Shown: one piece after another, positions 39,119 through 52,766 of the stretch | Layout of the letters: each line of letters begins with the position of its first letter | Numbering within the stretch: the stretch's first letter is position 1 | Source: Escherichia coli | GTDB taxonomy: Bacteria; Pseudomonadota; Gammaproteobacteria; Enterobacterales; Enterobacteriaceae | Length of the DNA stretch: 64,000 bases | NCBI RefSeq assembly: GCF_965641715.1 | Contig: NZ_OZ282453.1 | Strand: one strand, 5' to 3' | Position numbers and translations under genes: made by a program | Notes under the pieces: model-generated | What the model was told of the DNA's origin: nothing | Databases searched by the model: none | What the model saw: only the letters and a program-made list of their open reading frames with translations

Positions 39119-39199
39119 ATTTTGCTCCAAACGACATCGGCAATTGGGCAAATTCTAACCCAATAATAATCGCCATTATCTAATACCCTGGTATTTCGT

Positions 39200-45030: not shown

Positions 45031-45827
45031 CAATAAACAAAACTCACAGGTGCAGCACCTGCCGGATGCGGCAAAATACCCATCGGGATGCCATAAATCA
45101 TTTCGAGGGTTTCGCCGCGCATAATTTCCGCAGGCGTTCCCTGAGCAATCATTTCACCGCCGCGCAGGGCGACCAGATAATCACAGTAGCGTGCCGCCAT
45201 ATTGATATCGTGCAGCACGGCAATGACCGTCAGACCACGTTCCTGACTTAAACGATGCACCAGCGCCAGCACATCAACCTGGTGGGCGATATCCAGCGCC
45301 GAGGTTGGCTCGTCGAGCAACAGACAACGGCTATCCTGCGCCACCAGCATGGCGATCCACGCCCGCTGACGTTCGCCGCCAGAGAGGCTATCGACCAGCC
45401 GATGCGCCAGCGGTTTTAAGCCAACCAGCGAGATAGCTTCCTCAACTTTTTCGCGATCTGCCGCACCAAAGCGCCCTAGTGCGCCATGCCACGGGTAACG
45501 ACCAATCGCCACCAGTTCACGCACGGTCATCCCTTCTGCCGGAGGAAGCTGCTGCGGTAAATAAGCCACTTTGCGGGCAAACGCTTTGCTGCTCCAGCTT
45601 TCCAGCGGCTGGGCATCAAGAAGAATCTCCCCTTCCGACGGCGGCTGATGACGGCCAAGCATTTTGAGCAGAGTGGATTTACCAGAACCGTTGTGACCAA
45701 TCAGACCGGTCACTTTCCCGGCAGGAAAGGTTAACGACAGCGGATGCAAAAGCGTGCGCCCGGGCACACGAAAGGAGATATTACGCAGTGCAAAAGTGGT
45801 ATCGGAATGATTCGTGTATTCCTGCAT
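45030..45827 (-). CDS. fhuC: Ferric hydroxamate ABC transporter ATPase FhuC
   Basis: 265 aa from MQEYTNHSD...; Walker A GHNGSGKST and ABC signature LSGGERQR. Confidence 0.95.
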   Translation of the reverse strand: MQEYTNHSDTTFALRNISFRVPGRTLLHPLSLTFPAGKVTGLIGHNGSGKSTLLKMLGRHQPPSEGEILLDAQPLESWSSKAFARKVAYLPQQLPPAEGMTVRELVAIGRYPWHGALGRFGAADREKVEEAISLVGLKPLAHRLVDSLSGGERQRAWIAMLVAQDSRCLLLDEPTSALDIAHQVDVLALVHRLSQERGLTVIAVLHDINMAARYCDYLVALRGGEMIAQGTPAEIMRGETLEMIYGIPMGILPHPAGAAPVSFVY

Positions 45828-45877
45828 AACAGCCAACTTGTGAAACGGGCACGGAAATCCGTGCCCCAAAAGAGAAA

Positions 45878-47387
45878 TTAGAAACGGAAGGTTGCGGTTG
45901 CAACGACCTGACGTTCTGCGCCCCAGAAGCAGCCATAAGTGTTAAAGCAGCTGGCGACGTATTCACGATCGAACAGGTTGTTGACATGCAGCGCCACGTT
46001 GGAGCCCGCCATGCCGACTCGCGCCAGATCATAACGCACTAACGCATCCACGACCGTATAACTTCCCACTTTAAAGGAGTTAGCCGGATCACCATAGCTG
46101 GAGCCAGTATAACGACCACCGGTGCCCAGCGTCAGACCTGAAAGCGGACCGTCAAAGAAGGTATAGTCAGCCCACAGCGAAGCCATGTGTTTTGGCACCT
46201 GTGCCGGCGTATTGCCTTTATAGGTAGTATCGGTGGTGTATTCCGCATCGGTGTAAGTATAAGAACCGACTACGTTAACACTCGCCGACAGCGCCGCTTT
46301 CGCTTCGATTTCTACGCCACGTGCGCGGATCTCGCCACCTTCAACCGAGAAGAAGGAACCCTCAGGGTCCGCCATCAGGTTGTTGGTTTTAGTGAGATTA
46401 TACACGGCACCAGTAACTACAATCGGACGATCTTCCGGTACATATTTCACGCCGACTTCATACTGCTTACCTTTAGACGGTGCGAAAATATTACCATCCT
46501 TCCCAACTTGCGAAGAAGGTTCAAACGATTCGCTATAGCTGAAGTAAGGTGTTACGCCATTATCAAACAGGTAGTTAACACCACCACGCCAGGTAAACTG
46601 TTTGTCATCGCGTTTATCGGTCGTCGCGGCAACGCGGTTAAGAGATTCTTGATCTGCCCAGTCGTAACGACCGCCCAGGGTGACCAGCACTTTATCCCAC
46701 TGCGCCTGATCCTGAACATAAACGCCCGTTTGTTTCTGCTTATTCAGAATGCGGTAAGGGCCGGAGTTTGCCGGATCTTTGGCATTGAAGTCGAAATCGG
46801 TATTCACCGGATTGTACAGATCGAGCAGCGGTACGGAGTCGTCGTAACCAAACCAAGCGTTGATGTCATTACGCATACGCATAAAGTCGACACCGGTCAG
46901 CAGGGTGTGGTCGATATCGCCAGTGGCAAACTTGCTCTGCAACTGGGTATCAACGGAGAAGTTTTGCAGCTTCTCATCATCAACGACGTATTTACGTGCC
47001 AGATAATGGCCTTTATCCGCTGGCGCTAATGCCGCACACTGTTTGCTGTAAGCATTCGCCGGATCGGAGCAGACGCCGTAACCATAAACGCTGTTTTGCG
47101 AGGTTTTGTTTTCAGCAAAGCGCAGGTTCTGACGCACAGTAAAGGTGTCGTTAAATTCGTGATCGAAGCTGTAGCCCACCATCTTCTCATTACGAGAATA
47201 GGTGTTGTTCTTCGCCCCTTCGTTAAAGTCTGTCGGCAGACGCTTACCGTTCGGCAGCGGCTCAACGGTTCCCTCTTTCGGCAACCAGCCGTAATAACCC
47301 GTTTCCGATGCCGCTAACCGCTGTGGCTACTACAACTGCGATTTTACGCAGTGAGTGTTTTGGCTGAGCAGTTTTGGAACGCGCCAT
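45878..47387 (-). pseudogene. fhuA: fhuA (tonA) ferrichrome TonB-dependent receptor, inactivated by an out-of-frame internal deletion
   Basis: ATG at 47387 encodes MARSKTAQPKHSLRKIAVVVATAVSG (FhuA signal-peptide start) then shifts frame and stops after about 39 codons; a different frame from ~47284 down to 45878 encodes the C-terminal ~468 residues of the FhuA barrel ending ATFRF; junction near 47308. Confidence 0.85.
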
Positions 47388-47410
47388 TGGTATATCTCTG
47401 ATGTAAAGTG

Positions 47411-47452
47411 AATGATAACGTAAACGAGAATGATTATTATAAAGATAAGATA
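47411..47452 (-). promoter_or_regulatory. Fur box / fhuA promoter region
   Basis: gaatgataacgtaaacgagaatgattattataaagataagataat contains overlapping GATAAT/ATCATT hexamers resembling the Fur consensus, directly upstream of the fhuA start. Confidence 0.55.
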
Positions 47453-47561
47453 ATATTCGAAACGCTGGCGGGTTCGCAAGCGGTACGCAATCTGAGCGTT
47501 CCTGAAGGGTTAATAAACAACCAGATGAAAAGAAAGGGTTAATACTTTGGGTGGGATGTTA

Positions 47562-47592
47562 TTTTACCGGATGGCAACTCGCCATCCGGTAT
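47562..47592. repeat. REP-like palindrome downstream of mrcB
   Basis: accggatggc aactc gccatccggt inverted repeat. Confidence 0.45.
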
Positions 47593-47606
47593 TTCACGCT
47601 TAGATG

Positions 47607-50141
47607 TTAATTACTACCAAACATATCCTTAATCCAACCGGCTACACCGTCGCTATCTTTCTGCTCTTGCTGAGCAGGTTGCTGTTGCGGCTGTTGCTGC
47701 GGCTGTGAAGACTGATCAAACGGGTTGCCTGACGGCTGCTGCTGCATCTCACTCTGCTGGCACAGCGATTGCGGATCGCTGGTCCAGACCGGCAAGACAC
47801 GCATGCCACCGCTGCAAACAAAGTTGCCGTCGTAGTCCACGCCCATATCTGCAATATCTTCTGGCGGAACAAGATTCAGCGGCGTTGGCGTCTGGTTAGC
47901 CAGATAACGCTGATAAATCGACATTGCCCCGCTGGCACCATACAGTTTGGTCGGCTGGTTGTTATCACGGCCTACCCAGGTGATGGTCACCGTGCTGCCG
48001 TCAATGCCCGCAAACCAGGTATCTACGTTATTGTTGGTAGTCCCTGTTTTCCCTGCCAGATGCAGGTTCGGGTATTTCGCCCCAAGCTGACGACCCGTAC
48101 CACGTTGTACCACCTGCTGCATGGTCCATAGTGTCAGATACGCCGCCTGCGCCGGAACAGCGCGTTCCGCCTGCGGGAAGCTCTGATACAGCACTTTGCC
48201 ATCTTCCGCGATTACCGAACGCAGCGCAGAAAGCGGTGCACGGTTACCGCCGCTGGCGATGGTCTGGAATGCCTGCGCCACTTCGATTGGCGTTAAGTTC
48301 AACGCCCCCAGCAGCATCGCCGGAACCGGATGCAGCTGATCTTTCGGCACGCCCAGTTTAATCCAGGTATCCGTAACCGCAGGCAGCCCCAGCGCCATCC
48401 CCAGATTTACCGTCGGCACGTTCATCGAACGGGTCAACGCATCCACCAGCATCACTCTGCCGCTTTCGCTATAACGACGGTCATCGTTCTGCGGTGACCA
48501 GACCTGGCCATTCGGCTGACGTAGCGCGATTGGCGCATCCGCAATCCACGTATTCAGACGATAGATTTTCGGCTGGCTTAAGGCCGTCAGATAAGTCGCT
48601 GGTTTTGCAAGGGAACCAATCGAACGACGCGCCTGCATCGCACGGTTGTAGCCCGCAAACTGCGGCTCAGAACCTCCGACCATCGCACGAACTTCACCAC
48701 TAAAGCGGTCGACGACCACAATCGCGGTTTCCAGATCGCTCAGCTTACGCTGTTTCTTAAGTGCCGGAATGCCTTCCACGGCGGCTTTTTCTGCCGCGTC
48801 CTGGGCCACCGAGTCAAAGGTAGTGAAGATCTTCACGCCGGAGAGATCTTTTACCTTATCGCCTAATTTAGCCTGAAGCTCCTGACGCACCAGTTGCATA
48901 AAGGCTGGCTGAGGAGAGATCACCCCACCGCGCGGCTGAACACCCAGCGGACGCGCACTCAACATGTCATAGAGTTCTTGATCAATAATCTGTTGCTGTT
49001 GCAGCAGACGCAGTACCAGATTACGTCGCTCCAGCGCCAGTTTCGGGTTACGCCACGGGTTGTAGATGGACGCTCCTTTCACCATACCGACTAACAGCGC
49101 CTGTTGATCGAGGCTCAATTCTTCTACCGGGCGACCAAAGTAATACAAGCTCGCCAGCGGGAAGCCGCGGATTTCGTTGTCGCCGCTCTGACCGAGATAC
49201 ACCTCGTTCATATACAGCTCAAGAATACGGTCTTTGCTGTAACGCGCGTCCATGATCAGCGCCATGTAAGCTTCGTTCGCTTTACGCCAGTAAGAGCGCT
49301 CGCTGGAGAGGAACAGGTTTTTCACCAGCTGTTGCGTCAGCGTACTCGCCCCCTGCACCGTGCGTCCGGCTGTCAGGTTTGCCAGCACCGCACGTCCGAT
49401 GGAGTAGAGACTGATTCCATCATGCTCGTAGAAATGGCGGTCTTCTGTCGCCAGCAAAGTATCCACCAGCAAATCCGGGAAACCACTGCGCGGCACAAAC
49501 AAACGCTGCTCACCGTTTGGTGAGGAGATCATGGTGATCAGACGCGGATCAAGACGGAAGAAACCGAACTGACGGTTGTTCTCCATATTGACGATCGTCG
49601 CCAAATGATCGCCATCAAAGGTCAGACGCGCGCGCACCTGTCCTTCTTTACTGTCCGGGAAATCAAACGGACGGCGAATCATCTCAATGCTGTTGGCCTG
49701 CACGGTAAATTCGCCAGGACGGGTCATTTTTGACACCTGACGATACTGGGTTGCCTCCAGCAGCTTCACCATTTCGTTCTTGCTGATGGTCATGTCTGGC
49801 TCAAGGTTGACCATTCGACCATAAACTGCCGCAGGCAGTTGCCAGACCTTGCCATCAATACGGCTACGAATTTTTTGATCGAGATAAACGCCGTAAATGG
49901 CGATCAGCACGGCAAAAACGATAGCCAGTTTTAACAGCAGCCATAGCCAGCCGCGTTTGCCACGAGGCTTACGCCCTTTGCCTTTGCCCTTACCTTTGCG
50001 CGGCATCGGTTCTTCATCCTCATAGTCATCATAATCGTCGTAATCATCGTCATCTTCGTAACGACGACGGCTTACCTTTTGTTTGACCGGACGCGTCGGT
50101 TTCCCTTTGCGTCCAATTGGCTCGCGGTCATTCCCGGCCAT
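47607..50141 (-). CDS. mrcB: Penicillin-binding protein 1B (bifunctional glycosyltransferase/transpeptidase)
   Basis: 844 aa from [15 protein letters not shown]...; acidic [15 protein letters not shown] and (KG)n N-terminal tract, TM helix, SxxK transpeptidase domain. Confidence 0.96.
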
Positions 50142-50235
50142 GCTTTTTCTCCGCAATATTCAGGCGCAAAAGCCCGATTTTCTGTTCTTCTGTTGCAAGA
50201 CAGAAGAAGATATCTCTCAAAATTTGAGCTCGATC

Positions 50236-50330
50236 GGTCCCCTCTCCCTTAAGGGAGAGGGTTAGGGTGAGGGTGAACGTGCGCGCTGATGCCCTCACCC
50301 CGGCCCTCTCCCACAGGGAGAGGGAGAAAA
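50236..50330. repeat. Box C-type compound palindromic intergenic repeat
   Basis: ccctctccc ttaa gggagaggg; gggtgagggtgaa ... gccctcaccc; ccctctccc aca gggagaggg: three nested inverted repeats in 95 bp between the hrpB stop and mrcB start. Confidence 0.7.
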
Positions 50331-50336
50331 CCAACC

Positions 50337-52766
50337 TTACGAATACTTTTTCGTCCGTCGCGTCGGTGCCGTGTTTGCCGGGTCGTCCGGCCAGACGTGT
50401 TTGGGATAACGCCCTTTCATCTCCTTTTGCACCTCACGATACGCCCCTTTCCAGAAGGCCCCCAAATCACGCGTGATTTGCAGCGGCCTTTGGGCAGGGG
50501 AAAGCAACTCCAGCACCAGCGGCACGCGCCCCTGGGCGATCGTCGGATTGGTGGCCTCACCAAACATCTCCTGCATTCTCACCGCCAGCGCGGGCGGGTT
50601 ATCTTCATGATAACGAATGGCGATCCGGCTTCCCGTCGGCACAGTGTAATGCGCAGGCAATTCACTATCCAGACGTTGCTGCATTCCCCAATCAAGTAAT
50701 CCGCGTAGTGCCTGATAAATGTCGAGTGATTTCAGGCCGCGTAGTGAATGTACACCGGCCATATGTGGCAGCAGCCACGTTTCCAGCGTCGCCAACAAAC
50801 TTTCATCATCAACCGCTGGCCAGTCATATTCTGGCAACCACTTTCCGGCGCATAACAAACGCAAGCGTAGCTGTTCCGCTTCCGCCGTCCAGTTGAGCAC
50901 GCTTAAACCTTTATCACGGATGCCGTTAAGCATCGCCTGATGCAACTCGTCTTCTGACGGTTTCGCCAACGGCTGCACTTTCACCGTCAACTGACCGATT
51001 TGCAGCCGACGCCAGGCTTTCAGCGTACCTTGCGCGTCATCCCATTCCACGGTGTCAGATTGCTGCACCAGCTGCGGACAGCGTCGCACTAATTCATCAA
51101 TATCGACCGGTAGCGCCAGTAAAATCCGCGCATCCGGCGAGGCGCTGCCCTGCAATAATAACGGTGCGATCAACCATTCGTGGCGGCTTAGCGCGTCGTC
51201 GGCATCGAGCATCGCTCCCATGCCGTTTGCCAGTTGATAGCGTCCATCTTGCCCACGGCGGCGAGCAATGCGATCGGCAAACGCCCCGGCAAGTAGCGGC
51301 GCGATAAGCGAACTGTCTGCCTCACCGCCGCGTACGTTTAAGCGTTTTAACAGTTGCTGACTACGTTGCTGCCAGGCTGGTTGATTGCGCGAAAACGCCA
51401 CGCCCAGGTCACTATTGCCCATCCGTGGCGGCTCTTCGAGAATGGCGGCAATTTTTGCCGCGGTAGCAGCTTCGTCGTCGCTCTTTGCGCTAACCAGCAT
51501 TGCCGCTAAACGCGGATCGTTACCCAGCGCTGCCATTTTTTGCCCCTGCGCACTAAGCCGTTCACCGTCCAGCGCCCCCAGCATCTTTAACAGGCGTTTC
51601 GCGGCCAGTAAATTCACTGCTGGCGGTTGATCCAGCCAGCTCATCTGCGCCGGATCGCTGCATCCCCATTGCAGTAATTCCATCAACAAACCGGAAAGAT
51701 CGCTTTGTAATATTTCCGGTTCACTTTGCGCCGCGGCGCGTTCTGCTTGTTCCTTGGCGATTAAATGCAGGCAGATACCCGGCTCCAGACGCCCGGCGCG
51801 CCCGGCACGCTGCGTCATCGACGCCTGACTGATTCGCTGAGTAATCAACCGCGTAAGCCCTGTTCGCGGATCAAAACGCGCCACCCTTTCCTGGGCACAA
51901 TCCACCACCAGACGAATACCTTCGATGGTTAAACTGGTTTCAGCAATATTGGTCGCCAGCACCACTTTGCGCATCCCTTGCGGTGCCGGGAGGATCGCTT
52001 TTCGCTGATCGTTCAGCGACAACGCGCCATACAGCGGGCAGAGCAACACATCACTGCCGATGCGCGAAGCCAGTTGTTCCTGCACACGCTGAATTTCTCC
52101 GACGCCAGGTAAAAATAACAGTAATGATCCACTTTCCTGACGCAGCATTTCGGCGGTGGCAACCGCGACGGCTTCGTCAAAACGCTGATGCGCGGGCAGC
52201 GGTAAATAACGGCGTTCAACCGGAAACGAGCGCCCTTCTGAGATGACGACGGGCGCTTCTGGCAGCATTTGCTGCAAGCGGTCGTTATCCAGCGTAGCCG
52301 ACATAATCAGCAGTTTAAGGTCATCACGCAGACCTTGTTGCACATCGAGTAACAGCGCCAACGCCAAATCCGCCTGCAAGCTGCGCTCATGAAATTCATC
52401 AAGGATCACCAGTCCAACACCGCTCAGTTCCGGGTCACGCTGGATCATCCGCGTCAGCACGCCTTCGGTAACCACTTCCAGGCGGGTATTCGGCCCGACG
52501 CAGTTTTGCGCACGCATCCGGTAGCCAACGGTATCGCCTGGCTTTTCGTTAAGCAGCTCCGCCAGCCGTTGCGCGACGTTACGCGCCGCCAGACGCCGTG
52601 GCTCCAGCAGGATAATTTTCCCGTTAATGCCGGGATGCGCCAGCAGTTGCAGCGGCAGCCAGGTTGATTTCCCGGCCCCGGTCGGCGCACTTAATAATAC
52701 CTGCGGCGCACAATCGAGAGCGGTAAGTAATTCAGGTAAGACGGCAGCAACGGGCAACGACGACAC
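50337..52766 (-). CDS. hrpB: ATP-dependent RNA helicase HrpB (DEAH-box)
   Basis: ORF 50337..52811; probable GTG start giving ~809 aa; Walker A APTGAGKST and DEFH motif. Confidence 0.92.
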   Translation of the reverse strand: MSSLPVAAVLPELLTALDCAPQVLLSAPTGAGKSTWLPLQLLAHPGINGKIILLEPRRLAARNVAQRLAELLNEKPGDTVGYRMRAQNCVGPNTRLEVVTEGVLTRMIQRDPELSGVGLVILDEFHERSLQADLALALLLDVQQGLRDDLKLLIMSATLDNDRLQQMLPEAPVVISEGRSFPVERRYLPLPAHQRFDEAVAVATAEMLRQESGSLLLFLPGVGEIQRVQEQLASRIGSDVLLCPLYGALSLNDQRKAILPAPQGMRKVVLATNIAETSLTIEGIRLVVDCAQERVARFDPRTGLTRLITQRISQASMTQRAGRAGRLEPGICLHLIAKEQAERAAAQSEPEILQSDLSGLLMELLQWGCSDPAQMSWLDQPPAVNLLAAKRLLKMLGALDGERLSAQGQKMAALGNDPRLAAMLVSAKSDDEAATAAKIAAILEEPPRMGNSDLGVAFSRNQPAWQQRSQQLLKRLNVRGGEADSSLIAPLLAGAFADRIARRRGQDGRYQLANGMGAMLDADDALSRHEWLIAPLLLQGSASPDARILLALPVDIDELVRRCPQLVQQSDTVEWDDAQGTLKAWRRLQIGQLTVKVQPLAKPSEDELHQAMLNGIRDKGLSVLNWTAEAEQLRLRLLCAGKWLPEYDWPAVDDESLLATLETWLLPHMAGVHSLRGLKSLDIYQALRGLLDWGMQQRLDSELPAHYTVPTGSRIAIRYHEDNPPALAVRMQEMFGEATNPTIAQGRVPLVLELLSPAQRPLQITRDLGAFWKGAYREVQKEMKGRYPKHVWPDDPANTAPTRRTKKYS

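Follow-up and report, generated by a model that had tools for sequence, protein, structure and literature searches.

To judge from its sequence, the stretch of Escherichia coli DNA analysed here (64,000 nucleotides of contig NZ_OZ282453.1, assembly GCF_965641715.1; hereafter the window) very probably has an ordinary fhuACDB promoter and operator, of the sigma-70 type and repressed by Fur, and behind it a fhuA gene that was inactivated by a recent, spontaneous loss-of-function deletion. Downstream of mrcB, the genes fhuA, fhuC, fhuD and fhuB follow each other on the same strand and are joined by short junctions or overlap, which is the arrangement that defines the operon. The coordinates of all elements are compiled in Table 1.

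Table 1. Elements of the fhu locus in the window, listed from upstream to downstream with respect to transcription of fhuA.
Feature	Position	Strand	Remarks
mrcB end, upstream of fhuA	47607		
Fur operator	47423..47444	minus	weight matrix, consensus, identity with K-12
-10 hexamer TATAAT, perfect	47436..47441	minus	read directly; overlapped by the Fur site
fhuA 5' UTR, about 42 nt	47388..47429	minus	start near 47429, +/-2 nt
fhuA start codon ATG	47387-47385	minus	
Short ORF starting at the native fhuA ATG, 41 codons plus TGA (47264-47262)	47262..47387	minus	
fhuA remnant, barrel portion only	45878..47307	minus	translation matches C-terminal FhuA
Stable hairpin GGGGCACGG-AUUU-CCGUGCCC	45847..45866	minus	in the 50-nt fhuA-fhuC spacer
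fhuC, intact, 265 aa	45030..45827	minus	length equals annotated fhuC of K-12 and others
fhuD, intact, 296 aa	44140..45030	minus	
fhuB, intact, 660 aa	42161..44143	minus	exact protein in many E. coli assemblies

The region 47388-47460 (minus strand) comprises the fhuA 5' UTR, the start site, the -10 box and the Fur operator of the operon. When positions 47290-47620 (minus strand) were aligned, the sequence from about -160 to +80 around the fhuA ATG was found to be 100% identical in K-12 MG1655, BL21(DE3) and H9Ecoli. The promoter region thus equals that of K-12 base for base, and therefore the experiments done with the K-12 promoter hold for the window sequence as well. The likeness includes the -10 box, the layout of the start site, the HypT footprint sequences, the distance of the Fur site from the ATG and the downstream order fhuC-fhuD-fhuB. 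Nothing in the regulatory region sets the window apart from K-12; only its structural gene is broken. An earlier note on this DNA had claimed that the fhuA promoter is retained together with its native start context, and both statements are borne out by the identity with the characterised K-12 promoter. An Rfam search of positions 45500-47800 returned no meaningful RNA family.

The same note had called Fur-box-like repeats in this region. They are indeed present: gaatgataacgtaaacgagaatgattattataaagataagataat is found on the plus strand at 47410-47454, fhuA itself being encoded on the minus strand. The classical 19-bp Fur box GATAATGATAATCATTATC is matched at 14 of 19 positions at 47426-47444 (minus strand), which ties for the best match in the whole window. 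Weaker overlapping matches of 13/19 and 12/19 follow in a 6-bp register and reach 47450. Dinucleotide-preserving shuffles of the 219-nt intergenic region served as background for these matches; a maximum of at least 14 was obtained with P = 0.02, and at least four sites of at least 12/19 with P = 0.005. Shuffling the AT-rich 61-nt core alone led to the same outcome. With the consensus, a second "Fur-box cluster" appeared at 50015-50060. It is spurious: this GAT/GAC-rich stretch near the 5' end of mrcB (minus strand) encodes an acidic Asp/Tyr/Glu segment and thereby yields a false cluster of 12/19 matches, which is a warning against scans that use the consensus only.

The region was also scanned with a position weight matrix. 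It was symmetrised, covered 19 positions and was built from 11 K-12 sites (fepA, entS, entC, cirA, fecA, exbB, fhuF, sufA, bfd, mntH and fiu), with fhuA left out (leave-one-out). The site positions were taken from the table of Chen et al. 2007 (PMC2189734) and the sequences from NC_000913.3. Among the 63,982 positions of the window, the top score (20.8 bits) fell on 47423-47441, within the range of the training sites themselves (20.2-24.5 bits). First-order Markov simulations of 64 kb attained a score of this height in two of 200 runs, and simulations of the local AT-rich composition in none of 5,000. The scan, which the earlier note had proposed as a check of its Fur assignment, hence places the site above background and at the top of the window.

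In its 9-1-9 form the site is centred on 47432, exactly 45 nt upstream of the fhuA ATG. This coincides with the position published for K-12, where the table of Chen et al. 2007 (PMC2189734) gives for fhuA a Fur cluster of three sites, 31 bp and 19.5 bits at coordinate 167439 (-45), marked as gel-shift tested. Fur-dependent expression of K-12 fhuA promoter-lacZ fusions has been published, as has the derepression of fhuA transcripts in a fur deletion by RT-qPCR.

Two further Fur-like sites were seen elsewhere in the window. The runner-up of the matrix scan (18.4 bits, 26843-26861) is the near-palindrome ATTCAGAATGATTCTCAAT in the divergent map-rpsB intergenic region, its centre lying 84 nt upstream of the map ATG (26936). 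In Salmonella, the identical sequence AAATTGAGAATCATTCTG at map/rpsB has been reported as a predicted Fur site, with no published Fur regulation or binding listed (PMC3212961). That the matrix recovered this predicted site supports the matrix. The second site, the palindromic and Fur-box-like AATAATAATCGCCATTATC at 39162-39180 (minus strand), lies between the stop codon of clcA (39200) and the ATG of erpA (39118), the gene of an Fe-S carrier. It matches the classical consensus at 14/19 on both strands, yet its matrix score is only 7.6 bits; Chen et al. 2007 do not mention it.

The perfect TATAAT hexamer is accompanied by no good -35 hexamer recognisable at a distance of 17-18 bp. A promoter consensus scan offered an alternative with 9 of 12 matches, TTGCGA (47479-47474) and TATTAT (47455-47450) separated by an 18-nt spacer, which carries less weight than the TATAAT layout. 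The start site can be placed with the help of the HypT footprints at fhuA. The text of PMC6397515, which adopts the E. coli start site, gives them as TTACGTTATCATTCA at +7 to +21 and AACCCTTCCTTTTCA at -111 to -97. In the window the proximal footprint sequence is found at 47409-47423 (minus strand), and the distal site, with one mismatch, as AACCCTTTCTTTTCA at 47526-47540. Both footprint positions lead to a +1 at about 47429; taken from that text, the assignment may be a base or two off. Relative to this literature-derived start the Fur site extends from about -12 to +7 and covers the TATAAT box (47441-47436). When iron is plentiful, iron-loaded Fur on this site would occlude both the -10 box and the start site and thereby block RNA polymerase.

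Behind this promoter, fhuA is broken. Base-level comparison with H9Ecoli and with a closely related draft assembly that has an intact fhuA (L006, GCA_965256245.1) revealed that nucleotides 81-814 of the gene are missing, i. e. 734 bp or codons 27-272. The first 80 nt of the gene, ending at 47308, are identical to the references, and identity resumes at 47307, which corresponds to nucleotide 815. At the junction 47308/47307 neither microhomology nor a scar of any kind was found in this comparison. In agreement with this, a 521-nt query over the fhuA 5' end aligned as two pieces spanning 1,255 bp in every one of the top-listed complete genomes. The earlier note had described the peptide made from this gene as frameshifted. 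The frame is indeed shifted, the cause being the 734-bp deletion and not a small frameshift. The note had missed this deletion, the loss of the plug domain that goes with it and the restriction of the lesion to this strain.

Lost with the deletion are the last part of the signal peptide, the whole plug domain and the first strands of the barrel. What can still be read from the native ATG is a product of 41 residues, consisting of 26 native signal-peptide residues (MARSKTAQPKHSLRKIAVVVATAVSG) followed by 15 out-of-frame residues (IGNGLLRLVAERGNR). It keeps the native n- and h-regions (residues 1-26), whereas the native c-region (M-S-V-Y-A/Q-A, as read from the intact relative) has been deleted and replaced by IGNGLLRLVAERGNR. 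Hence the short, signal-peptide-like product announced in the earlier note is encoded, with a length of 41 instead of about 39 codons. No Pfam family reached the cut-off for this peptide, and the exact peptide is absent from the gene-position collection.

For the remnant downstream of the junction, the only Pfam match was TonB_dep_Rec_b-barrel at profile positions 43-436, with no Plug; the FhuA of the intact relative shows the Plug at residues 76-180 and the full barrel. No single frame of this fhuA holds a signal peptide, the TonB box and plug, and a complete 22-strand barrel, which together make up a functional FhuA. With the plug and the first barrel strands lost in addition to the frameshift, the gene cannot yield a receptor. 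The remnant does not lie in the frame of the native ATG and thus remains untranslated unless ribosomes reinitiate.

The deletion appears to be confined to this strain. Of 5,426 complete E. coli genomes, none covered at least 80% of an 80-nt query across the junction, and a 40-mer of the junction had no match among the GTDB representative genomes. Nine loci were retrieved with the exact FhuB protein, among them that of the fhuA+ relative. This relative encodes an intact FhuA of 747 aa and matches the window with 100.000% identity on both sides of the deletion, over 11,147 nt on the downstream side and 2,102 nt on the upstream side (13.2 kb). Exact look-ups with FhuB and MrcB yielded only loci without the deletion, and candidate gene calls for the remnant, of 433 and 419 aa, pointed to no more than L015, whose contig is too short to include the junction, and to L014, which carries an unrelated nonsense allele. 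The complete identity to a fhuA+ relative, together with the absence of the junction elsewhere, indicates that the deletion is very recent and private.

Loss of FhuA as such is not rare. Independent nonsense alleles of fhuA were found at codon 254 in L008 (GCA_014104435.1) and at codon 322 in L014 (SRR12026302), both with intact fhuCDB, and according to a preprint fhuA frequently carries a pseudogene annotation. Receptor loss of this kind, with the promoter left intact, thus recurs and is nothing remarkable. A further locus (L011, GCA_018391035.1) has a divergent fhuA allele of 729 aa beside an identical FhuB protein. In the fhuA interval 1,394 ungapped nucleotide differences were counted for it, a number that is inflated because the 729-aa allele begins 54 nt later. 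The divergent allele fits the mosaic evolution that has been reported for fhuA.

The three genes downstream of fhuA are intact, and the question is how well they are expressed. When iron is scarce, the fhuA promoter would fire, and ribosomes would translate the 41-codon ORF and then stop. The following 1,434 nt (47261-45828), now untranslated, would be free of ribosomes and open to Rho and RNases, and as a consequence, so we propose, fewer transcripts would reach fhuCDB. An excess of C over G is a hallmark of Rho loading sites. Windows of 78 nt with more C than G (C/G at least 1.3), a measure of composition only, cluster in four regions of the untranslated stretch: 47170-47093, 46962-46885, 46845-46716 and 46260-46157. 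Moreover, fhuACDB is described as one operon in the literature, and a preprint reports that most frameshifts in fhuA exert a polar effect on fhuCDB. Taken together with the C-rich untranslated RNA, partial polarity is to be expected. We consider it moderately probable, from these features, that the deletion is polar on fhuCDB to a meaningful degree; polarity from fhuA lesions is in any case already assumed in the literature. The earlier note had suggested with due caution that polarity may lower fhuCDB expression, and the suggestion is reasonable.

The situation resembles that of Rho-dependent polar mutations in its early stop, in the long untranslated stretch ahead of co-transcribed genes and in the C-over-G stretches. 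It differs from them in that polarity at fhuA is predicted from composition; a literature search found neither a mapped Rho termination site in fhuA nor an internal promoter for fhuC. The spacer between fhuA and fhuC contains a hairpin that, in a context of 76 nt, folds with -22.3 kcal/mol (z = -2.6). It is strong and GC-rich and has no proper U-run. It may act as a partial terminator, or it may stabilise the RNA and so set the ratio of FhuA to FhuCDB.

Possibly, promoter and deletion are as described and fhuCDB is nevertheless expressed at a near-normal level, owing to reinitiation, to poor Rho sites or to an internal promoter. Little or no polarity of this kind is conceivable, if rather doubtful. 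Reinitiation could to some extent be permitted by an ATG in the native frame at 47182, only 80 nt past the stop of the 41-codon ORF; its Shine-Dalgarno context, however, is poor. An internal promoter could be sought in a promoter-like match within the remnant (46135-46106, minus strand), yet this match is weak (9/12), and the scan found four sites of this quality where 2.2 are expected by chance. Classical tonA mutants commonly remain in use for other hydroxamates, which counts against polarity. The rut-like stretches are a compositional hint only, and fhuCDB is intact here as well as in two other fhuA-null assemblies. In the window, this intactness is uninformative with respect to selection because the deletion is too recent (no differences from the fhuA+ relative). 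On the other side stand 1.4 kb of untranslated RNA with several C-over-G windows, which is a classic setting for Rho, and the polar effect that the preprint ascribes to frameshifts in fhuA. We therefore retain the reading of partial polarity.

The origin of the deletion also has to be considered. Knockouts of fhuA (tonA) are routine in laboratory strains, and a deletion engineered, for example, in a T1-resistant production or cloning host would agree with this practice and with the clean junction that has no microhomology. Such an origin is nevertheless improbable. The junction carries neither an FRT or loxP site nor a marker scar, and its endpoints lie at arbitrary, out-of-frame positions, so that 80 nt of coding sequence are retained at the 5' side and 1.43 kb at the 3' side. 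Furthermore, the background is neither K-12 nor B: the flanks of the deletion are about 97-98% identical to K-12 and 96-97% to B, the best complete genome reaches only 99.2% identity over 17 kb, and the nearest relative found is a draft assembly. Similarity of the window to O157/O55-type sequences had prompted the idea of a Shigella origin, which was discarded, given that IS-like repeats are absent from the window and that L006 belongs to an E. coli assembly.

An error of assembly or sequencing that conceals a really intact fhuA in this strain is very improbable: it is true that the deletion is known from the assembled sequence alone and that its junction is present in no other assembly, yet no repeats flank the junction that could have collapsed (no repeats of at least 200 bp occur anywhere in the window), the flanks are perfectly colinear and error-free against the fhuA+ relative, and assemblers rarely lose 734 bp of unique sequence. 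Elsewhere in the window, GC-rich inverted repeats of the type ccctctccct...gggagaggg lie in the hrpB-mrcB intergenic region (50170-50340); they look like members of an intergenic repeat family.

A spontaneous deletion thus remains the preferred origin, and the allele fits among known ones. Like the classical tonA/fhuA nulls and the natural pseudogenes, it has lost the receptor function while promoter and fhuCDB are retained. It differs from them in being an out-of-frame internal deletion of 734 bp that is found in none of the 5,426 complete genomes. The allele is new, but its kind is classical. The promoter and its control by Fur are established knowledge, as are alleles with receptor loss and polarity in operons, and nothing at this locus departs from known systems.

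A more far-reaching effect can be imagined for the 41-residue peptide. Made under iron starvation and devoid of the native cleavage site, it might lodge in the inner membrane or in the Sec machinery and cause envelope stress or an altered export load, on top of a strong polar block. The effect of the peptide would then add to a block that makes the strain a mutant for all hydroxamate uptake. We regard this combination as highly unlikely.

Loss of the receptor in tonA/fhuA mutants confers resistance to the phages T1, T5 and phi80, to colicin M and to albomycin. On this basis, the strain has likely lost the uptake of ferrichrome and albomycin and is likely resistant to the FhuA-dependent phages and toxins T1, T5, phi80, colicin M and microcin J25. 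A weaker uptake of other hydroxamate siderophores that require FhuCDB is possible. Given the functions of FhuA, the deletion may have arisen via resistance to a phage or a toxin. The finding is an annotation of this strain, and as such it is relevant to work on iron uptake, on phage-host interactions and on siderophore-conjugate antibiotics in which the strain is used.
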